Shown in pieces: positions 33,233-44,574 of a DNA stretch of 64,000 bases (its first letter is position 1; the number at the start of each line of letters is the position of its first letter). Under the pieces are notes generated by a model that was given only the letters and a program-made list of their open reading frames with translations, did no database searches and was not told the DNA's origin. The DNA is from Vitreimonas sp. (lineage in GTDB: Bacteria; Patescibacteriota; Microgenomatia; UBA1400; PJMF01), in the NCBI GenBank assembly GCA_035627515.1, contig DASPLQ010000012.1:567558-631557 (forward strand), in the 5' to 3' direction. The translations under genes and the position numbers were made by a program.

Positions 33233-34087
33233 ATGCACGTTTCTGCTCTGCAAACATCGAGCGGCATGTTTTGTGTGCTGGCCCTCGACACCACTCCTAC
33301 TGTGGCTAACGAGCTCGGTTTAGATCTAGACCTAGAGCCCAACCAACAGTTTTTTGCTGCCCTCAATGAAGAGTTACTCAAACACCTTTCACCGATGAGT
33401 TCAGGGGTAGTCCTTGACCCCATTTTCACTTTGCCTCTTCTCTCGCACAAAGCTAATCAGCCGGGCTTAGCTCTCCGCCTGGAGCAGCTGACTCCCGGGA
33501 CTGATCCATTGGTAATTCCCACCATCATTCCTAATTGGGGTGTGGAGCACATCTCGCAAAATTATGGTGTGACGAAGGTTGAAATGTATTACCACCCTGA
33601 GGAAATGGAAGCATTGGCCAAAAAACAACTCATAGCTGAGATCAATGATTTTTGTGACCTCCAGCACTCTCATCTTCTCCTTAAACTCATGATTTACACC
33701 CAACCCGATGATGGTGAACAAGGTCTGAGTATGGCCGAGGTGCAGCTCGAGGCTGTGACTGAGCTCCGGTCTAACTGCCAACTGCTTGTCTTGCAGCCCC
33801 CTCCTGATTCACTGACCGCGGCTACCCTGACTGCTGAGCTGGATGTTCCCTGGCTAGTCAGTCTGGAAGGTTTAGAGTATGCCACTGCCAAAGACATTAT
33901 GCGCCAGGCGCTGGAAAGTGGAGCCAAAGGGGCCTATTTAGGTGATGTGGTGTGGCGTGATATCCGTAACCTCCGCCAGGCCGATGCTTCACTTGATTGG
34001 CCAGCCATCCAAACTTTCATTGCTACAGAGGCCCGCGATCGAATGATTGAGTTACGAAGGATCATTGATGAGTTTGCCAACATTTGA
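33233..34087 (+). CDS. hypothetical protein (possibly a TIM-barrel/aldolase-like fold)
   Basis: 284-aa ORF; the N-terminal FCVLALD segment weakly resembles class I aldolase families; no firm motif. Confidence 0.35.
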   Translation: MHVSALQTSSGMFCVLALDTTPTVANELGLDLDLEPNQQFFAALNEELLKHLSPMSSGVVLDPIFTLPLLSHKANQPGLALRLEQLTPGTDPLVIPTIIPNWGVEHISQNYGVTKVEMYYHPEEMEALAKKQLIAEINDFCDLQHSHLLLKLMIYTQPDDGEQGLSMAEVQLEAVTELRSNCQLLVLQPPPDSLTAATLTAELDVPWLVSLEGLEYATAKDIMRQALESGAKGAYLGDVVWRDIRNLRQADASLDWPAIQTFIATEARDRMIELRRIIDEFANI

Positions 34088-35679: not shown

Positions 35680-35685
35680 GATAAA

Positions 35686-35712
35686 AAAATCCCCGCCACT
35701 ATGGACGGGGAT
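35686..35712. terminator. bidirectional terminator hairpin between convergent genes
   Basis: AAAAAATCCCCG...CGGGGAT stem flanked by A- and T-runs. Confidence 0.45.
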
Positions 35713-35723
35713 CAGGGTCGAGC

Positions 35724-35954
35724 TTATTCTTCTTCTTTGCCTCTTAAGTCTTCAATCTCGGTTAAGAGAAAGAGACCTAAAGCAGTGGTAACTGCTGCAT
35801 TCCCCGATAGGACACAAACAATGCCGGCGCCTGCTGCGCCAGCTGTATTGCCATTGGTGATTGCATCAAACATGACGAATGCCGAAATTATGCACAGGGC
35901 TATCGCCCCAATGCATAATAACAACATTCTATTTGTCACTTTTTCTAGATTCAC
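35724..35954 (-). CDS. small membrane protein
   Basis: 76 aa with two hydrophobic helices and a Gly/Ala-rich segment. Confidence 0.4.
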   Translation of the reverse strand: MNLEKVTNRMLLLCIGAIALCIISAFVMFDAITNGNTAGAAGAGIVCVLSGNAAVTTALGLFLLTEIEDLRGKEEE

Positions 35955-36374
35955 TTAATACCTCCATATACCCGAGGACTTTTTTCCCCGGATGAGTACT
36001 ATCAACCACCGTGATTAACACCGAAGTTTATAGTACCCACCAGAGAAAAGAGTGAAGGCTAATGACAAGAATAAGCTCTAAACAAGACGTTTTCACTTTT
36101 TAAACAGCATTTGTTAAAAGTAAATAATCTTGGTTTTTAAGGTGCTTCTCACTCGAGAGAAACTAGCGCTAAATATATCATAAATACACACAAATGTCAA
36201 TATTATAGGACTAATTTTCATTAAATTTTTCATATCAAACGTAACTTTTGCACGTCTGTGTAAATTAATGCCTGGAAAACGTACATTTTGTAATATATTC
36301 AGGCAAAGGCTTACAAAAACTATTGATACAATTGCTCTAGGACAAGGGAAAGATACTGATAGAATAATGGCTAT

Positions 36375-36911
36375 ATGGCAAATCTTCTCAAATTTGAGGC
36401 AAAAAAGTGTTGGACAGCGGCTGGTGTCTTGATTCATGAAGGCAAGGTCTTGTTGATCAAACATAAAAAGGTGGGCATCTGGCTCAACCCCGGTGGTCAT
36501 TGCGAGCCCGGTGAAGCCCCTCATCAAGCGGCCGAGCGCGAGTTTTGGGAAGAAGCGGGTATCAAAGTCAAAGCAATTGATTTTGGTTTCACTCCCGACC
36601 AAAAAGATACCGAGTATGTGCCTAATCCCTTTGCCACTAATTTGCACTGGGTGTGTCGCGATAATTATGAGCACCGCGTCCACGGCGCTGAGCTGACTAA
36701 GTATGCTCAAACGCATTGGAAAAAAGGCTGCGAGCAACACCTTAACTTTTTATATTTACTCAAGCCGGTCGGTGACGTGAAGTTCAAAGAAAATATTGAA
36801 GAAACCGATGGCATTGGGTGGTTCACGCTGGCAGAACTAGACACCCTGGAAACCCATCCGCAAATTCGCCAAGAAGTGGCTGAAGCGATGCGACTGAGCC
36901 AATTAATGTAA
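36375..36911 (+). CDS. NUDIX hydrolase
   Basis: Nudix box GGHCEPGEAPHQAAEREFWEEAGI. Confidence 0.75.
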   Translation: MANLLKFEAKKCWTAAGVLIHEGKVLLIKHKKVGIWLNPGGHCEPGEAPHQAAEREFWEEAGIKVKAIDFGFTPDQKDTEYVPNPFATNLHWVCRDNYEHRVHGAELTKYAQTHWKKGCEQHLNFLYLLKPVGDVKFKENIEETDGIGWFTLAELDTLETHPQIRQEVAEAMRLSQLM

Positions 36912-37095: not shown

Positions 37096-37857
37096 ATGTC
37101 GACCTCAACCTTACGCGTGCGAAATTTGCGCGCTTCTATTGAAGACACTGAAATTTTAAAAGGCATTGACTTGAGCGTGAAGCCAGGTGAAATTCATGCT
37201 GTGATGGGTCCTAATGGTTCTGGTAAATCAACCTTGGCCTATACATTAGCTGGTCATCCGAGTTATGAAATTGCCGAGGGCAGTGAAGTGAGCTTAGATG
37301 GCGAAGACGTGTTAGAGATGTCTCCTGATGAGCGGGCCAATGCCGGTTTGTTTTTAGCTTTTCAGTATCCCATCGAGATTCCGGGTGTCAAAGTCCAGAA
37401 CTTTTTGCGGATGGCGTACGAAGCCCGTTTTGTAGATCAAGAAGACAAAAAATTTCCCTCAGTCCTGAAATTTCGTGAACACGTCGAAAAGCTGGCTGAT
37501 GAACTGGAAGTTAATAAAGAATTACTCAAGCGTGGTTTAAACGAAGGTTTTAGTGGTGGTGAAAAGAAACGCTTAGAAATCCTTCAAATGGCGGTACTCG
37601 AGCCGAAGTATGCCATCCTCGATGAAACTGATTCTGGCCTCGATATCGATGCTATAAAAGCCGTCGCTCACGGCGTCAAAAAAATTGTGTCCAAATATAA
37701 CACCGGGATAGTAGTAATTACCCACTATCAGCGCATTCTGGAGTACCTGAAACCAGATTTTGTGCATGTGCTCGTCAAAGGCAAAATTGCACAAAGTGGC
37801 AGCGGCGAGCTCGTCGACAAGCTCGAAAAGCAAGGGTACAAAGAGTGGGTTGAGTAG
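37096..37857 (+). CDS. sufC: Fe-S cluster assembly ATPase SufC
   Basis: Walker A GPNGSGKST, signature FSGGEKKR, Walker B ILDETDSGLD. Confidence 0.9.
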   Translation: MSTSTLRVRNLRASIEDTEILKGIDLSVKPGEIHAVMGPNGSGKSTLAYTLAGHPSYEIAEGSEVSLDGEDVLEMSPDERANAGLFLAFQYPIEIPGVKVQNFLRMAYEARFVDQEDKKFPSVLKFREHVEKLADELEVNKELLKRGLNEGFSGGEKKRLEILQMAVLEPKYAILDETDSGLDIDAIKAVAHGVKKIVSKYNTGIVVITHYQRILEYLKPDFVHVLVKGKIAQSGSGELVDKLEKQGYKEWVE

Positions 37858-37881
37858 GGGAATAAGTGGAAAGAAATTTAT

Positions 37882-38550
37882 ATGCCAGGCATGCCCGCAT
37901 TACAGGAAACAAGTTATCTCACCCAAGCTTATTTACGAGCGACAGGTGTGCAAGTTAAGACAGAAAAAGACGTCGCAACTCATGAAAATAGAGGAGTTGA
38001 TTTTGATGTGTGGGTAAATATTTTGCCTAACCTTTTAACACAGATTAGAAGTGTGGCTGAACCATGGTTACTCAAATGGTATTTTATTCAACGCTGTAAG
38101 ACTGAGGAGGAATTAAAACCGCTGCAAAATTTTGGCATGTTTGAAGAGTGGAAGTATGTTCGGAATAGTATAGTCACCCCTACATTGAAATCAGAGCAAA
38201 TGAAGCAAGTTTCACTTGAACAGCAACAAGCTATGAAACGTTGCGTCCGTATCATTAATCTTTACTTTCATTTAGTTGAGGGGGGACGTTCCATAGACAA
38301 AGTAGAAGATACGTTGAGGGAAATTTACTTTATGGAAGACGAAGCAGGGCATATCGAGAGTTTAGGAGATGATGGTAAGCCATATCCCGAAACCGAGCAC
38401 GCAAATCTTTTGTTGAATTATGCCGTAACTATGAGTGTCTTATTTAGGGATCAGGAGCAACCCCCAATTCATCGTTTTATACCGAGAGAGCCTATTACTA
38501 ACCCATCACCTCGTCAAGAAAATAACGGTTATAAGCAAATTGGAAATTAA
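37882..38550 (+). CDS. hypothetical protein (lower GC, inserted between sufC and sufB)
   Basis: 222-aa ORF with no recognisable motif; GC about 40% versus about 48% in the flanking suf genes. Confidence 0.4.
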   Translation: MPGMPALQETSYLTQAYLRATGVQVKTEKDVATHENRGVDFDVWVNILPNLLTQIRSVAEPWLLKWYFIQRCKTEEELKPLQNFGMFEEWKYVRNSIVTPTLKSEQMKQVSLEQQQAMKRCVRIINLYFHLVEGGRSIDKVEDTLREIYFMEDEAGHIESLGDDGKPYPETEHANLLLNYAVTMSVLFRDQEQPPIHRFIPREPITNPSPRQENNGYKQIGN

Positions 38551-38565
38551 AGTAGGAGTTACTAT

Positions 38566-39051
38566 ATGTCTTACTTAACCGAAGCACTTACTCAACTTGA
38601 AGGCTCATCTGCAAAGGTAGCAGAAACAGGAGTAATTACTCCTAGTGAGGTCCAGACCTTGGCAGATCATCAACATGTTTTGGCTGCTCAATTAATGAAG
38701 TTACAACTTATTTTAGATGTGTGGTTTGCTGAGGAACAACAAAGAGTAGTCGAAGGGGCTGAAGAACCACACGTAGCTGAATATGACGAAAAACAGTTTG
38801 GTGATCATGAGGTGTGGTTAGAGTTATGGAAGAAATATCTGAAAAAAGATGAGGAAACAGAACCACTAAGTCCTAATCAACAACCATCTAAGCCAGAGTT
38901 TCAACCAGCAACTATGGCTCAAATTAATTATGTTATTAAAGCAATCGAGATCTATTTTTTCTATCTTAAAGGTGATGCATCCTGGGAGATAGTGGAAATG
39001 ATTTTCAACGCTCGCCCCACTACCGAGCTAGTGGTTAGAGATTACGATTAG
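38566..39051 (+). CDS. hypothetical acidic protein (lower GC, inserted between sufC and sufB)
   Basis: 161-aa ORF preceded by AGGAG; no recognisable motif. Confidence 0.4.
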   Translation: MSYLTEALTQLEGSSAKVAETGVITPSEVQTLADHQHVLAAQLMKLQLILDVWFAEEQQRVVEGAEEPHVAEYDEKQFGDHEVWLELWKKYLKKDEETEPLSPNQQPSKPEFQPATMAQINYVIKAIEIYFFYLKGDASWEIVEMIFNARPTTELVVRDYD

Positions 39052-39099
39052 GACATCTACTCAGCTCTTGAACCAACTTCCTGGTAAAATATAACCTCT

Positions 39100-40527
39100 A
39101 TGGCCAGGTTTGCGCAAAAACATACCGATAAGTTTGATCCTCAAGCAATTGATGCGTATGAGCATGGGTACTCGTTTTCAACGAGTGGGTATTCGTATAT
39201 CACGCAGCCAGGTTTGAATGAGGGCGTTGTTAAAGAGATTTCTCACCTCAAAGGTGAGCCGGAGTGGATGCTCAACTTTCGATTGAAGGCCTACGAGCAG
39301 TTCCAAGCCAAGCAGATGCCTCCCTGGGGAGCTGATTTATCTGGCATTAACTTTGAGGCGATTCGTTATTACTTGCGACCGACAGATCAAGCGGTGAAAT
39401 CGTGGAATGACGTTCCGGCCGATGTCAAAAAAACCTTTGATCGTTTAGGCATTCCCGAAGCCGAGCGCAACGTTTTAGCTGGTGTCAAAGCTCAGTATGA
39501 CTCCGAAGTGGTGTATGGTTCTTTGAAACAGGTTTGGGCGAAAGATGGCGTGGTTTTCTTGTCGATGGATGAGGGTTTGAAGGAGTATCCCGATTTAGTT
39601 AAAGAATATTTTGGCAAAGTCATTCCCAGTGGCGACAACAAATTTGCCGCTTTAAATAGTGCGGTTTGGTCAGGTGGCTCGTTTGTGTACGTGCCCAAAG
39701 GTGTGCACGTTAAGATGCCACTGCAAACGTACTTCCGGATTAATGCCGAAAATGCTGGCCAATTTGAACGGACGTTAATCATTGTTGATGAAGGTGCCTC
39801 GGTTCATTATGTTGAGGGCTGCACCGCGCCGAACTTCTCATCCAACTCTTTGCACTCTGCCGTTGTCGAAATCTTTGTCAAAAAAGGTGCTCGCTGCCAA
39901 TACACTACCATCCAAAATTGGTACAAAAATATTTACAACTTAGTCACTAAACGCGCCTACGTAGAAGAAGAAGGTGAGATGGTGTGGACAGACTTCAACA
40001 TGGGTTCCAAAGTGACGATGAAGTATCCAGGGTTTATCCTGGCTGGCAAAGGTGCCCGTGGTGAGACGTTATCTATGGCGCTGGCTGGTAAAGGCCAACA
40101 CCAAGACACTGGTTCCAAAGCTATTCACTTAGCACCGTATACCAGTTCTACTATTATTTCTAAATCGATTAGTAAAAGCGGCGGCCGCACCAGTTATCGT
40201 GGGTTAGTTAACGTCGGTCCCAAAGCGTATGGTAGCAAAAATACCGTCATTTGTGACGCGTTGTTGCTTGATCCTTACTCACAATCGGACACCTATCCTG
40301 TCGATAAAGTTTTTAACTCTAATGTCCAAGTCCAGCACGAAGCCACAGTTTCCAAAATTGGTGATGACCAACTCTTTTACTTAATGAGTCGTGGTGTCAC
40401 CGAAGAAGATGCGCGCAAGTTGATTGTGAATGGTTTTATTGAAGGTTTGGTACGCCAATTGCCTCTCGAATACGCCGTAGAAATGAACCGCCTGATTGAT
40501 TACGAAATGGAAGGTAGTATTGGGTAA
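39100..40527 (+). CDS. sufB: Fe-S cluster assembly protein SufB
   Basis: Conserved SufB core and C-terminal FYLMSRGV...LIVNGF motif. Confidence 0.9.
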   Translation: MARFAQKHTDKFDPQAIDAYEHGYSFSTSGYSYITQPGLNEGVVKEISHLKGEPEWMLNFRLKAYEQFQAKQMPPWGADLSGINFEAIRYYLRPTDQAVKSWNDVPADVKKTFDRLGIPEAERNVLAGVKAQYDSEVVYGSLKQVWAKDGVVFLSMDEGLKEYPDLVKEYFGKVIPSGDNKFAALNSAVWSGGSFVYVPKGVHVKMPLQTYFRINAENAGQFERTLIIVDEGASVHYVEGCTAPNFSSNSLHSAVVEIFVKKGARCQYTTIQNWYKNIYNLVTKRAYVEEEGEMVWTDFNMGSKVTMKYPGFILAGKGARGETLSMALAGKGQHQDTGSKAIHLAPYTSSTIISKSISKSGGRTSYRGLVNVGPKAYGSKNTVICDALLLDPYSQSDTYPVDKVFNSNVQVQHEATVSKIGDDQLFYLMSRGVTEEDARKLIVNGFIEGLVRQLPLEYAVEMNRLIDYEMEGSIG

Positions 40528-40530
40528 CGT

Positions 40531-40956
40531 ATGCCAGAGACTTACCATCGTAAAATCGTCGTTGACGACAACATCGCGACTTTGTTGTACCAGCCGCTGA
40601 GTGACCGTCAAGGACAATTACACCGTTTGCTAGGCTCTTTAACGGCGATTAGTCAAGGTCGGCCGCCATTAGACGCTGTGACCTATACGGACTATCCCCA
40701 GCCTGCTGAGCCCGACCAGGAAATCTTATTTTTTGATTTTCCCTTATGGTGGGAAATTAGGTTATTACAAGCGTTATGTGTTTATTCTGCGGTTGATACC
40801 AAGGAAATGATGGAACGTGACAGTATTTTATCCGATGAACTGCTGGTGGAAAGCTCCGTGCTCAAAACACGTCAAAAGTGTTTTTTTGAAGCCGTTGAAG
40901 GAGTCGAAGATATTATTAATCAACTCAGAAATCCACCATTAATTCAACTACCATGA
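40531..40956 (+). CDS. hypothetical protein, possibly the N-terminal domain of SufD
   Basis: Sits where the SufD N-domain is expected; stop overlaps the next ATG (ATGA) in a different frame. Confidence 0.3.
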   Translation: MPETYHRKIVVDDNIATLLYQPLSDRQGQLHRLLGSLTAISQGRPPLDAVTYTDYPQPAEPDQEILFFDFPLWWEIRLLQALCVYSAVDTKEMMERDSILSDELLVESSVLKTRQKCFFEAVEGVEDIINQLRNPPLIQLP

Positions 40957-41441
40957 CCGAAAAAAATATCACAATCACCAAAAATGATGAAAAGTTGCAA
41001 CTGAGTGAGTCAGGGGTTTATATCGTTAACTTAGTTAAACCCGGTGCCCAAGTTGAGATTGCGGGCGCGTTTGCTGTGGCTGGGAGTGAGAAGATCGAGG
41101 TAACCGTGATCATTCACCACAAAGCTCCTCACACTCGAGCCAATACAACCTTACGAGGTGTAGCTAATGACCAAGCACACGTTCGTTTTGTAGGTAGAAT
41201 TAAAATTGATGAGAACTGTGGTGATACCAACTCATTTTTGACTGAACGTATTTTATTATTATCAGACGATGCTAAAGCCGAAGCTGTCCCAGATCTCGAA
41301 ATCAAAAGTGATGACGTCAAGTGCTCTCATGCTGCCAGCATCAGCCGCATTCCTGAAGAACACATTTTTTATTTAATGAGCCGGGGAGTGACACGCCAAG
41401 CTGCTGAGTCACTGATTGTTGAGGGCTTTTTGAAGGTTTGA
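40953..41441 (+). CDS. sufD: SufD-like Fe-S assembly protein (beta-helix core plus C-terminal helices)
   Basis: PDLEIKSDDVKCSHAASISRI and EHIFYLMSRGV...LIVEGF match the SufB/SufD family C-terminal region. Confidence 0.6.
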   Translation: MTEKNITITKNDEKLQLSESGVYIVNLVKPGAQVEIAGAFAVAGSEKIEVTVIIHHKAPHTRANTTLRGVANDQAHVRFVGRIKIDENCGDTNSFLTERILLLSDDAKAEAVPDLEIKSDDVKCSHAASISRIPEEHIFYLMSRGVTRQAAESLIVEGFLKV

Positions 41442-41503
41442 CGGATTGATGCGTAATAGTGAATTCTTGCCAGTAATCTATTAATCCTTTATAGTAGGTC
41501 ACT

Positions 41504-41704
41504 ATGACAGACATTAAAAAGTTTGTTACAAATCCTCAGCCTAGATTTTTGCCTGCCAGTAAAAATACTTCACCAAAGAAAAAACTTTCTGAAGAAGAAA
41601 AAGAAAGAGTTATTTCTGAAGTAGTAGAAATTATTCGAGAAGGTCAGCGATTACGTGAGGAAGAAGGAAACGTAACTGGAACTCCTCATGCAGCTTTTCT
41701 ATGA
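41504..41704 (+). CDS. small charged protein, candidate antitoxin/partner of the downstream PIN gene
   Basis: 66 aa; overlaps the PIN ORF start by 17 nt; lies within the 33% GC island. Confidence 0.3.
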   Translation: MTDIKKFVTNPQPRFLPASKNTSPKKKLSEEEKERVISEVVEIIREGQRLREEEGNVTGTPHAAFL

Positions 41705-42281
41705 CCAAAGAATAACTTCTCTGGTCCAAGACAAATATATTTTCCTTGATAATGACTTTTTAAGTTTACTTTTTACCAATGAAGAGGCCTTTAGAGAAGC
41801 ATACAGCTGTTTAGCAGGGTCATATTTTCTGTTAGATTCTTTAACTATATTTGAGTTTTTAAGAAATATTTTTGTGCCTAAGGAAAGAAAAATTCGTGAA
41901 AAATTTCTTGCATCTAGCCTTGGAAATACTAGTGTTTTCTTTTTAGCTACAGACCACAACGATATCTATATTAAGACTAGAGAAAATGCTTTAATTTTAT
42001 CTAAGATATATGCCCACCAAGGTATTAATGGTAATAAAAAAAGTGGTGGACCTGGACCAATTGATTTGTTCTTGGCGGCCAAGCTGATGATTTATTCTAA
42101 AAGGAACCATTTACTGATTACGGGCAATAAAAAAGATTTCCCTACGGTTATTTTTGACACCTTATCAATCTTAAATATTGAAGATAAAAACAGTGGTACG
42201 ATGAGATGTTATAGTTTAGTCAGCTTTAACCAAGAAAAATTCGATGATTGCTTTGAGAAGTTGAACGACTTAAAAGTATAA
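41688..42281 (+). CDS. PIN-domain protein (VapC-like nuclease fold)
   Basis: N-terminal YIFLDNDFL acidic motif and C-terminal LLITGNKKDF (TxNxxDF) motif typical of PIN; low-GC island. Confidence 0.5.
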   Translation: MQLFYDQRITSLVQDKYIFLDNDFLSLLFTNEEAFREAYSCLAGSYFLLDSLTIFEFLRNIFVPKERKIREKFLASSLGNTSVFFLATDHNDIYIKTRENALILSKIYAHQGINGNKKSGGPGPIDLFLAAKLMIYSKRNHLLITGNKKDFPTVIFDTLSILNIEDKNSGTMRCYSLVSFNQEKFDDCFEKLNDLKV

Positions 42282-42884
42282 CTAAATAAGTTTCCGACAA
42301 AAAAGTTTACGATGTTGTTCACAGATCCCAGCTGTTTTAATTCCTAGTCGATGTCTAGTAGTCCCATACCCGACATTGTTCTTCCAATCATATGCTGGAT
42401 ATTGGGCAGCTAACGTCACCATCAATGCATCCCGATACACTTTTGCCACGATGCTAGCAGCCGCAATACTATAGACTTTAGCATCACCTTTGACGATAAA
42501 TTCATATTCAGCTGGCCATTTAGGAAGTAACTTTTGTTTAAACGGCAAACCATCAATTGCAATTAAGTTGCATTTAGTCAGTTGATTAAGGGCTGCCTCC
42601 ATCGCATAACGTTGAGCGGCCACGATACCAAATTGATTAATCATCTCTACACTGCCCACCCCGATGCCATGACAGAGCGCAGTTTGTTGAATTTGGGCAG
42701 CTAGTTTCTCACGTACCCGAGCCGTAACTTGCTTCGAGTCATTGATGCCGCTGAGGGGCAGGTGATCAGACGCAAACACCACCGCTGCCGCCACAATAGG
42801 ACCGGCCAGCGCGCCCCGACCCACTTCATCCATACCGGCAATAAACTTTGTCCCAGCTCTCCAGTAAGGTTGCTCCCAATCCAT
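42282..42884 (-). CDS. rnhB: ribonuclease HII
   Basis: IAGMDEVGRGALAGPIV catalytic D-E segment; start placed at the MDWEQ methionine. Confidence 0.85.
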   Translation of the reverse strand: MDWEQPYWRAGTKFIAGMDEVGRGALAGPIVAAAVVFASDHLPLSGINDSKQVTARVREKLAAQIQQTALCHGIGVGSVEMINQFGIVAAQRYAMEAALNQLTKCNLIAIDGLPFKQKLLPKWPAEYEFIVKGDAKVYSIAAASIVAKVYRDALMVTLAAQYPAYDWKNNVGYGTTRHRLGIKTAGICEQHRKLFCRKLI

Positions 42885-42922
42885 CGATAATGAAATGCCC
42901 TTCATCCTGATACAATACCACT

Positions 42923-44185
42923 ATGATTGACGCTAACACAATCAAAACTGACTTTCCCATTTTAAGCCGCAAGGTGAACGATAAACCTTTGGTGTATTTA
43001 GACAATGCCGCCACCTCGCAGAAACCGAGGGCAGTCATCCAAGCAATTGTGGATTACTACGAACACCATAATGCAAATGTACATCGAGGGGTTCATCAGC
43101 TCGGTGATGAAAGTACGCGCGCCTTTCACGACTCACGCCAAGAAATTGCCCAGTTCATGGGAGCGGAGGCGGAGGAATTGGTGGTGGTTCGTAATACGAC
43201 TGAAGCCTTAAATCAAATCTGTTATACCTGGGGTGAGTACCATGTGGGAGCCGATGACGTCTTGATTGTCACGGAAATGGAGCATCATAGTAATATCGTG
43301 CCGTGGCAGGAACTAGCCAAGCGAAAAAACGCCCTCGTTAAATTTGTGACAGTCGATGATCAAGGGCGGGTGGAGCTTGATAGCCTCCAGGCCTTACTCT
43401 CTGAATATAAAACGCGAATTAAAGTAGTAGCTTTCATACATGTTTCCAATACCTTAGGCACGCTCAATCCTCTCGAAAAAATTGTAGCCACGATTGATGA
43501 TCATTTCGGTCAAGCACAGCGGCCATTACTAGTGGTCGATGGTGCTCAAGCTGCTGCTCATCTGCCCGTTAACTTTGCGAAATTAAAAGTTGATTGTTAT
43601 GTGGTTTCTGCCCACAAAATGCTTGGTCCCATGGGCATTGGTGGGTTATTAATTCGCAAATCATTACTCAAGACATGGCCACCATTTTTATTTGGGGGCG
43701 GGATGATTAATGAAGTCAGCACGCAAGGCACCACCTTTGCTGAGGATTTAGAAGAACGTTTTACCGCGGGCACACCCGATGTTGCCAGTTTAGCGGGCTG
43801 GGCAGCAGCCTGTGAGTATTTAGCTGGCGTAGGAATGCGGGAATCTCAAACTCACGATCGGCAGCTCGTGGAGTATACATTGCAACAACTGCAGACTTTT
43901 TCTCAGGTGAAAATCATTGGTCCTACTGATTTTAATGACCATGAATTTGATCGAGTTGGTTCAGTGGCGTTTGTATACGAAGGTGTCCACGCCCATGATG
44001 TGGGACAAGTGCTGGACTCCGAAGGAGTGGCTGTCCGCAGTGGCCATCACTGCACCATGCCCTTACACGTCAAATTTGGTTGGCCTGCCTCTACGCGCGT
44101 GAGTTTCCAAATTTACAACTCGATTGACGACGTCGACAGTTTTATCACTGCCCTCCAAAAAGTAAAAACTATTTTTGGAAAGTAG
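42923..44185 (+). CDS. sufS: cysteine desulfurase SufS
   Basis: Class V aminotransferase; PLP lysine in SAHKMLGP; RSGHHC active-site Cys loop. Confidence 0.9.
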   Translation: MIDANTIKTDFPILSRKVNDKPLVYLDNAATSQKPRAVIQAIVDYYEHHNANVHRGVHQLGDESTRAFHDSRQEIAQFMGAEAEELVVVRNTTEALNQICYTWGEYHVGADDVLIVTEMEHHSNIVPWQELAKRKNALVKFVTVDDQGRVELDSLQALLSEYKTRIKVVAFIHVSNTLGTLNPLEKIVATIDDHFGQAQRPLLVVDGAQAAAHLPVNFAKLKVDCYVVSAHKMLGPMGIGGLLIRKSLLKTWPPFLFGGGMINEVSTQGTTFAEDLEERFTAGTPDVASLAGWAAACEYLAGVGMRESQTHDRQLVEYTLQQLQTFSQVKIIGPTDFNDHEFDRVGSVAFVYEGVHAHDVGQVLDSEGVAVRSGHHCTMPLHVKFGWPASTRVSFQIYNSIDDVDSFITALQKVKTIFGK

Positions 44186-44199
44186 GAGTAGCCATCACT

Positions 44200-44574
44200 A
44201 TGTCAGACCTTTATCAAGAAATTATCCTTGAGGAAGCTCGACAACCCCAAAACGTGGGACAGCTGGAAGACGCTGACTATGTGATTCATGACCTCAATGC
44301 GAGCTGTGGTGATGAAGTCACGATTTATTTAAAACTTGATTCTAAAACTAAAAAAATTGCGGCTGTGAAGTGGCAAGGCCAGGGGTGTGTTATCAGTCAA
44401 GCTGCAATGAGTTTGTTATCCGCTCACCTGATGGCTCACCACATAACTCTTGATCAAATTCAGTTATTGTCTCATCGGGATTTATCCGAATGGCTGGGAA
44501 TTAATGACATTAGCCCAGGTCGGCTGAAGTGTTTATTACTTGGCTTGAATGCACTCAAGAGAAAGTTACCATGA
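44200..44574 (+). CDS. sufU: SufU/IscU-like sulfur-transfer scaffold protein
   Basis: NifU N-terminal-like domain with Cys in NASCGD, GQGCVIS and RLKC. Confidence 0.75.
   Translation: MSDLYQEIILEEARQPQNVGQLEDADYVIHDLNASCGDEVTIYLKLDSKTKKIAAVKWQGQGCVISQAAMSLLSAHLMAHHITLDQIQLLSHRDLSEWLGINDISPGRLKCLLLGLNALKRKLP

Follow-up and report, generated by a model that had tools for sequence, protein, structure and literature searches.

Two open reading frames separate sufC from sufB

We analysed a 64,000-nucleotide (nt) stretch of contig DASPLQ010000012.1 (assembly GCA_035627515.1, positions 567,558 to 631,557), hereafter called the window, with a focus on two open reading frames (ORFs) of 222 and 161 codons, ORF222 and ORF161, which stand between sufC and sufB in a cluster of suf genes for iron-sulfur (Fe-S) assembly. 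The features at this site are listed below, with positions counted from the first nucleotide of the window and with database matches given by their expectation values (E).

37096-37857, plus strand: sufC (TIGR01978, E 5e-100)
37858-39099, 1,242 nt: segment intervening between sufC and sufB, with no counterpart in any relative
37882-38550, plus strand: ORF222, orphan, 222 amino acids (aa), isoelectric point (pI) 5.5; NCBI hypothetical protein HYD35034.1, locus tag VD999_03115
38554-38558, plus strand: AGGAG, a Shine-Dalgarno-like motif read from the sequence, 7 nt before the ATG of ORF161
38566-39051, plus strand: ORF161, orphan, 161 aa, pI 4.5, without cysteine; NCBI hypothetical protein HYD35035.1, locus tag VD999_03120
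39100-40527, plus strand: sufB, 475 aa (TIGR01980, E 2.5e-214), no intein, 64-88% identity to relatives

An earlier note on this DNA had placed the two ORFs between sufC and sufB in the same orientation and with short spacers, and both the coordinates and the spacers confirm this arrangement: 24 nt separate sufC from ORF222 (37858-37881), 15 nt ORF222 from ORF161 (38551-38565) and 48 nt ORF161 from sufB (39052-39099). Likewise, the AGGAG ribosome-binding site and the acidic character that it ascribed to ORF161 are borne out by the motif and the pI listed above. The 48-nt leader of sufB lacks an obvious Shine-Dalgarno motif. As to sufC, translation probably starts at ATG 37096, yielding a protein of 253 aa, rather than at GTG 37018 of the listed ORF, since the 279-aa ORF matches TIGR01978 from residue 32 onward and the SufC proteins of relatives comprise 248-253 aa.

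No terminator-like site was found on the plus strand within 37858-39099, and promoter-like sites occur in the insert at chance frequency only. Co-transcription of ORF222 and ORF161 with the suf genes is plausible, because the genes share one strand, are separated by short spacers and are not interrupted by an internal plus-strand terminator-like site. An Rfam scan of the whole window returned no structured RNA family.

Composition and coding signal of ORF222 and ORF161

ORF222 and ORF161 lie in one reading frame, with a TAA and five codons between them. In frame, they reach codon scores of 0.20 and 0.33, respectively, as compared to 0.31 ± 0.09 (minimum 0.10) for the reference genes, and the off-frame scores drop to roughly -0.6 to -0.9 (-0.58 and -0.69 in the case of ORF222). 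Moreover, both ORFs show the order GC1 > GC3 > GC2 for guanine-cytosine (GC) content at the three codon positions, and a rough calculation puts the probability that 222 consecutive codons at 40% GC lack a stop by chance at ~5e-7. Judged by this codon signature, ORF222 and ORF161 appear to be genuine coding genes and not chance ORFs.

The earlier note had put both ORFs at about 40% GC, which is accurate: the values are 39.9% for ORF222 and 39.7% for ORF161, as compared to 45.3% for sufC, 45.9% for sufB and 44.3% for the window. Its description as lower-GC genes is true, albeit in a mild sense. That is, both lie ~1.9 standard deviations (SD) under the mean of the 34 long genes of the window, three of which are equally low, and the shift is real but mild and within the native range. 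Cysteines are absent from ORF161 and number two in ORF222, whose tail is rich in proline.

ORF222 and ORF161 are absent from syntenic relatives

Related loci were gathered by scanning genomes with SufC and metagenomes with an alignment of the short SufD of the clade, which together yielded 30 loci. They stem from related bacteria with small genomes, and two of them are labelled Patescibacteria or Woesebacteria. Individual loci are referred to below by numbers such as L081. The order of the backbone genes is conserved and reads SOD (superoxide dismutase), exonuclease-like gene, NUDIX, sufC, sufB, a sufD of ~160 aa, sufS and sufU, followed by at least eight more genes. Between positions 33233 and 52572 of the window, about 20 backbone genes are collinear with those of L081, L096, L002, L004, L083 and L088, at 40-85% protein identity. 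ORF222 and ORF161 have no counterpart in this syntenic backbone, and the same holds for the window genes ORF141, ORF66, ORF197 and rnhB, which are described further below.

The earlier note had proposed a synteny comparison as a check, and its outcome is clear: ORF222 and ORF161 are absent from all 30 loci (tblastn at E 1e-3), including the nearest relative L081. Searches of all ORFs of at least 50 aa in these loci by phmmer (E ≤ 20) and hmmsearch (E ≤ 100) detected no relative either. L081 shares 74%, 84% and 69% identity in SufC, SufB and SufD, respectively, and has its sufB ATG 22 nt after the sufC stop codon. Both genes are present in 22 loci; in 14 of these, sufC and sufB overlap or lie at most 35 nt apart. 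Thus, the claim that sufC and sufB are normally adjacent stands for the gene order of this clade, but not as a universal rule; in Bacillus, the order is sufCDSUB.

The remaining eight loci (seven of them distinct) carry 0.46-1.24 kb of other cargo at the sufC-sufB junction, none of which is similar to ORF222 or ORF161. In six distinct relatives, a second NUDIX gene (PF00293) is found in this place (L001, 8830-9327; L008, 8789-9280; L083, 6861-7385; L086/L090, 6820-7326 in L086; L092, 8113-8574; L100, 7995-8519). It encodes 153-174 aa with 37-55% identity among loci and is additional to the backbone NUDIX gene upstream of sufC, which suggests a real association of NUDIX and suf genes in the clade. 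This second NUDIX gene resembles ORF222 and ORF161 in its slot, orientation and tight spacing to sufC and sufB, but it belongs to a known family shared by six relatives, whereas ORF222 and ORF161 are unique and unrelated to it. A remnant of such a junction NUDIX gene inside the insert of the window was considered and rejected, as tblastn matched only the backbone NUDIX gene at 36375-36911. The cargo of L007 is a unique ORF of 190 aa, and L001 and L008 also carry further unique ORFs. Acidic proteins are encoded by about half of the relatives' other junction ORFs, which are mutually unrelated. The idea that the junction ORFs of relatives form one fast-evolving family, for which a pattern of S/T-x-E-Q plus an amphipathic helix was noted by eye, was rejected because BLASTP, phmmer and hmmsearch found nothing to support it.

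Variability is not restricted to the sufC-sufB junction. The junctions nudix-sufC, sufB-sufD and sufD-sufS range from 0 to 6 kb among relatives, and nearly every relative has private inserts, e.g. L083 with 5.1 kb at nudix-sufC and L092 with 6 kb at sufD-sufS. The sole suf junction that stays tight is sufS-sufU, in 19 of 20 loci. A comparable picture has been reported for Saccharibacteria G1 genomes, in which synteny is kept at 55-65% amino-acid identity while single genes are gained or lost (PMC7427843). The fixed backbone with gene gain and loss seen here resembles that picture, albeit in a different group of the candidate phyla radiation.

The NCBI label of the metagenome-assembled genome from which the window derives is 'Vitreimonas sp.' (Alphaproteobacteria), and six of the relatives are labelled 'uncultured Pseudomonadales'. 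This public taxonomy looks wrong: gene content, synteny, 44% GC and contigs of 1.2-1.4 Mb link the window to the loci labelled Patescibacteria or Ca. Woesebacteria.

Database searches return no homologues

In agreement with the earlier note, which saw no recognisable domains, neither ORF222 nor ORF161 matches a Pfam or NCBIfam model at E ≤ 1, whereas SufC, SufB and SufD score strongly in the same searches. By these two collections, neither ORF belongs to the described Suf families SufA, SufE, SufT, SufR, SufU and SufBD. There was also no match for either ORF in PHROGs and PADLOC (both at E ≤ 1) or in the PDB sequences; across the domain and family searches, ORF222 gave coiled-coil-like chance matches only. 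When 5.8 billion proteins were searched with ORF222, ORF161 and a joint profile of the two sequences, each query retrieved itself only; the same was true for ORF222 in an exhaustive phmmer search against 1.84 billion cluster representatives. ORF222 found nothing in metagenome contigs, and ORF161 nothing significant in viral contigs, phage genomes and plasmids, where a single match (E 0.01) to a Paracoccus region without annotation is at the level of chance. Both proteins form singleton clusters and are known from one contig of 1.41 Mb. In the literature, we found no mention of additional genes at the sufC-sufB junction of Patescibacteria. By the measure that no homologue is detected outside the lineage in the databases searched, ORF222 and ORF161 qualify as orphans.

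Structure prediction with AlphaFold2 (AF2) from single sequences gave ten helices for ORF222, at a mean predicted local distance difference test (pLDDT) score of 41, and helical content only for ORF161, at a pLDDT of 50.5. Low pLDDT values are expected for any single-sequence prediction. Both proteins are thus predicted to be all-helical, and the C-terminal ~70 residues of ORF222 are probably disordered. Foldseek found no match at E < 1 in the PDB for the low-confidence model of ORF161, a result that we regard as uninformative.

ORF222 and ORF161 weakly resemble each other

BLASTP aligns ORF222 and ORF161 collinearly over 146 residues with 21% identity (pairwise E 0.18). The Smith-Waterman score of the pair is 53, as compared to 32 ± 5 for shuffled sequences and 34 for a reversed-sequence control. 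A score of 53 was attained in 7 of 2000 full shuffles, in 0.2% of 5000 full shuffles and in 1.1% of local shuffles, which keep the local composition. The common anchors are mostly aromatic and comprise SYLT.A near the N-terminus, W, FG..E.W, KY and I..YF....G..S...VE; in the low-confidence AF2 models, the predicted helices of the two proteins align as well. Among 1,885 ORFs, each is the top match of the other by length-corrected score, if only marginally. Collectively, these alignments make it probable that ORF222 and ORF161 are tandem paralogues. ORF141, located between sufB and sufD, was considered as a third paralogue and rejected, as it has no similarity to ORF222 or ORF161.

Further inserts and peculiarities of the suf cluster

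The remaining genes of the cluster in the window are as follows.

Upstream of the NUDIX gene: SOD gene and exonuclease-like gene, both backbone genes
36375-36911, plus strand: NUDIX hydrolase gene (PF00293, E 2e-17), directly 5' of sufC
40531-40956, plus strand: ORF141, orphan between sufB and sufD, pI 4.5, with an ATGA overlap with the sufD start
40953-41441, plus strand: short sufD, 162 aa (PF01458 positions 98-232 of 232, E 7e-45)
41504-41704, plus strand: ORF66, between sufD and sufS, 35% GC
41688-42281, plus strand: ORF197, overlapping ORF66, 32% GC
42282-42905, minus strand: RNase HII gene rnhB (PF01351, E 1e-33), on the opposite strand within the suf cluster
42923-44185, plus strand: sufS, 50-62% identity to relatives by tblastn
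44200-44574, plus strand: sufU, 30-52% identity to relatives by tblastn, last backbone suf gene

The NUDIX gene at 36375-36911 is the probable first gene of the operon, and it has orthologues with 52-58% identity in the equivalent slot of L081, L002, L004, L088, L096 and L083. The ~700 nt that separate it from the exonuclease-like gene (35680-36374) are AT-rich toward their 3' end, where GC content falls to 32%. With 11 of 12 positions, a minus-strand site at 36200-36172 is the best promoter-like match of this region; a weaker one on the plus strand closely precedes the NUDIX ATG (36339-36368). The region may represent the control region of the nudix-suf operon.

In the window, private inserts occupy three junctions of the operon, namely sufC-sufB, sufB-sufD and sufD-sufS. 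The insert between sufB and sufD is ORF141, which has no match in Pfam, NCBIfam, PHROGs or PADLOC and no counterpart in the relatives, and which forms a singleton cluster (HYD35037.1). At the same junction, L002 (180 aa), L004 (97 aa), L096 and L098 hold ORFs that are unrelated to ORF141. The insert between sufD and sufS consists of ORF66, ORF197 and the reverse-strand rnhB. The composition of ORF66 and ORF197 is clearly atypical, with z-scores of -3.5 and -4.8 for their GC contents of 35% and 32%, respectively. A promoter-like site (41467-41495, 10 of 12 positions) lies ahead of ORF66. Neither ORF has a match in Pfam, NCBIfam, PHROGs or PADLOC; in ORF197, a PIN-like D..E..D..N pattern is discernible by eye. 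RNase HII found no match in the syntenic loci.

SufD is limited to the C-terminal half of the SUFBD core, both in the window and in every relative of the clade, and an alignment of eight SufD sequences (L001-L008) shows 50-63% identity at similar lengths. As far as these sequences tell, a truncated SufD of ~160 aa is the norm in the clade. The possibility that ORF141 is the detached N-terminal domain of SufD was rejected, as it shows no similarity and relatives with an equally short SufD do without ORF141.

In several relatives, SufB itself is interrupted by an in-frame insert of ~1.0-1.1 kb (gene spans: L001, 9701-12265; L083, 7401-9956; L086/L090, 7299-9860; L095, 629-3139). The insertion site is identical in these loci and falls after residue ~241, between EG and CTAPNF. 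In L001, the insert starts with CFTAGT, ends with VAVHN ahead of the following C and contains the LAGLIDADG-like motif LIGYYLAEGS; these termini and the motif mark the SufB insert as an intein.

Origin and possible role of the gene pair

Taken together, our data are best explained, with a confidence somewhat above even, by a lineage-specific orphan pair, probably of tandem paralogues, which was gained at the sufC-sufB junction of one Patescibacteria-like lineage after its split from the sampled relatives. The pair is best read as standing outside the conserved Fe-S assembly machinery. We infer gain rather than repeated loss, since the empty junction is both the majority state and the state of the nearest relative, so that gain is the more parsimonious course. 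The earlier note had offered a hitch-hiking cassette as one option, and in the broad sense of lineage-specific cargo this view is upheld by the absence of the pair from 30 syntenic relatives and by the variable cargo of the junction. Across the clade, the junctions nudix-sufC, sufC-sufB, sufB-sufD and sufD-sufS repeatedly harbour differing extra genes while the order of the backbone stays fixed. A gene landing at such a junction would destroy nothing and would gain expression at no cost, as transcription from the operon promoter reads through it. In the present case, the insertion would have separated sufC from sufB, provided that the tight arrangement is ancestral, and both new proteins would be made alongside SufC and SufB. 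The products would be two soluble, acidic, all-helical proteins of the cytoplasm, which might associate with each other.

In these respects, the pair resembles taxonomically restricted (ORFan) genes, which likewise have no homologue, occur in one lineage and sit between collinear flanks in a slot that holds other genes elsewhere. What differs is that the slot lies within a housekeeping operon, between genes for subunits of one complex, and not in a genomic island, and that three junctions of one operon are occupied in this genome.

Several observations weigh against this explanation. The lineage has been sampled once, and even its SufB clusters with no other protein at 90% identity, so that the orphan status may partly reflect a missing genus or family. 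The compositional case for a foreign origin of ORF222 and ORF161 is weak, because the deviation amounts to only about -1.9 SD and stays within the native range. No direct or inverted repeats flank the insert beyond short chance-like matches, and no integrase, transposase or recombinase domain is encoded in or beside it; hence the hallmark of an insertion sequence, integrative element or prophage remnant, i.e. terminal repeats or a target-site duplication together with a recombinase, was not found. Nor does ORF161 have phage or plasmid relatives, so that signs of mobility are lacking. With regard to paralogy, phmmer relates ORF222 and ORF161 at E ~4 only (database of 1,886 ORFs), and unrelated ORFs reach an almost equal Smith-Waterman z-score. 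If the two are nevertheless paralogues, their divergence to ~21% identity in an intact and codon-adapted state would imply long retention under selection and hence some function, which may be linked to Suf or oxidative stress.

Such a link is the core of the alternative that ORF222 and ORF161 encode lineage-restricted accessory factors of the SUF/oxidative-stress system, which would deliver or buffer iron for SufBC(D) or serve as adaptors for the truncated SufD. We consider this unlikely. The location of the pair between genes whose products are subunits of one complex, in the same orientation, at short distances and with a good ribosome-binding site, is what one would expect of such factors, as is their presumed co-expression with SufBCD from the suf operon, a feature that they share with SufA, SufE, SufT/DUF59, SufR and SufU; the strong acidity of ORF161 and the oxidative-stress theme of the SOD-NUDIX-suf neighbourhood would fit as well, and so would two intact, codon-adapted and possibly old paralogues. 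However, all 22 junction-bearing relatives lack the pair and manage with an equally short SufD, and unrelated genes occupy the junction in other relatives. The acidity is non-specific, since it recurs in about half of the relatives' unrelated junction ORFs, and, unlike the known accessories, the two proteins are not conserved with the operon, are poor in cysteine, are predicted to be all-helical and resemble neither SufA, SufE and SufT nor any further Pfam or NCBIfam family. Thus, the suggestion of the earlier note that the ORFs are novel suf accessory factors fails in terms of conservation with the operon, the only test available, and keeps a small residual probability. That the pair founds a new lineage-restricted, acidic, all-helical family which works with SufBC and the short SufD, either by donating or buffering iron or as an adaptor in place of the N-terminal half that SufD lacks, is a long shot.

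It is also rather improbable that we are not dealing with two functional genes at all, but with a single gene of ~390 aa split by a nonsense mutation or a sequencing error, or with decaying or transient ORFs. A shared frame with only TAA and 15 nt in between would fit a split gene, but such a frame has a prior of one in three, and ORF161 has its own ATG preceded by AGGAG at ideal spacing. Singletons on one contig, pLDDT values of 41 and 50 and the proline-rich, probably disordered tail of ORF222 could be taken as signs of decay; yet low pLDDT is the norm for single-sequence prediction, both ORFs have coding-frame scores in the range seen for bona fide genes and show GC1 > GC3 > GC2, and it is very improbable that chance alone keeps such long runs free of stops at 40% GC. 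A further alternative is a selfish or defence module of two genes, be it a small anti-phage system, a mobile-element remnant or a toxin-antitoxin pair, which we judge to be distinctly improbable. The compact cassette with its short spacer between unrelated genes, and with GC and GC3 slightly under those of its neighbours, does resemble type II toxin-antitoxin and other two-gene cassettes, and selfish DNA is no stranger to this operon: ORF66 and ORF197 form a foreign low-GC cassette at another junction, and the SufB inteins of relatives show that selfish elements target it. Unlike these inteins and homing endonucleases, however, ORF222 and ORF161 are free-standing between genes and carry no Hint, LAGLIDADG, HNH or GIY-YIG signature, and the sufB of the window is intein-free. 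At 222 and 161 aa, both proteins are larger than is typical of type II modules, and it is likewise atypical that both are acidic; paralogy, if true, would make a toxin-antitoxin pair unlikely. There is no PADLOC, PHROGs or Pfam match, phages, plasmids and viral contigs hold no relatives of ORF161, ORF222 retrieved only itself in the exhaustive phmmer search, flanking repeats and a recombinase are lacking, and the copies elsewhere that a mobile module would lead one to expect are missing among 5.8e9 proteins.

Returning to the favoured reading of a lineage-specific gain, embedding in the operon is not evidence of a common function in this case, because the suf operon of the clade tolerates differing cargo at four of its five junctions. 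Should the pair instead turn out to bind SufBCD, this would bear on how iron reaches the SUF scaffold, and a family that works with SufBC and the short SufD would represent a previously undescribed kind of SUF accessory factor in an organism with an already minimal SufD. For the two genes alone, little follows from the favoured reading: they would be another orphan pair in a sparsely sampled small-genome bacterium, with no mechanistic tie to Fe-S assembly. The pattern of the clade as a whole, with its fixed backbone, private inserts, recurrent second NUDIX gene, SufB inteins and truncated SufD, is modestly interesting, as it lends itself to studying how newly arrived genes come to be expressed inside housekeeping operons.

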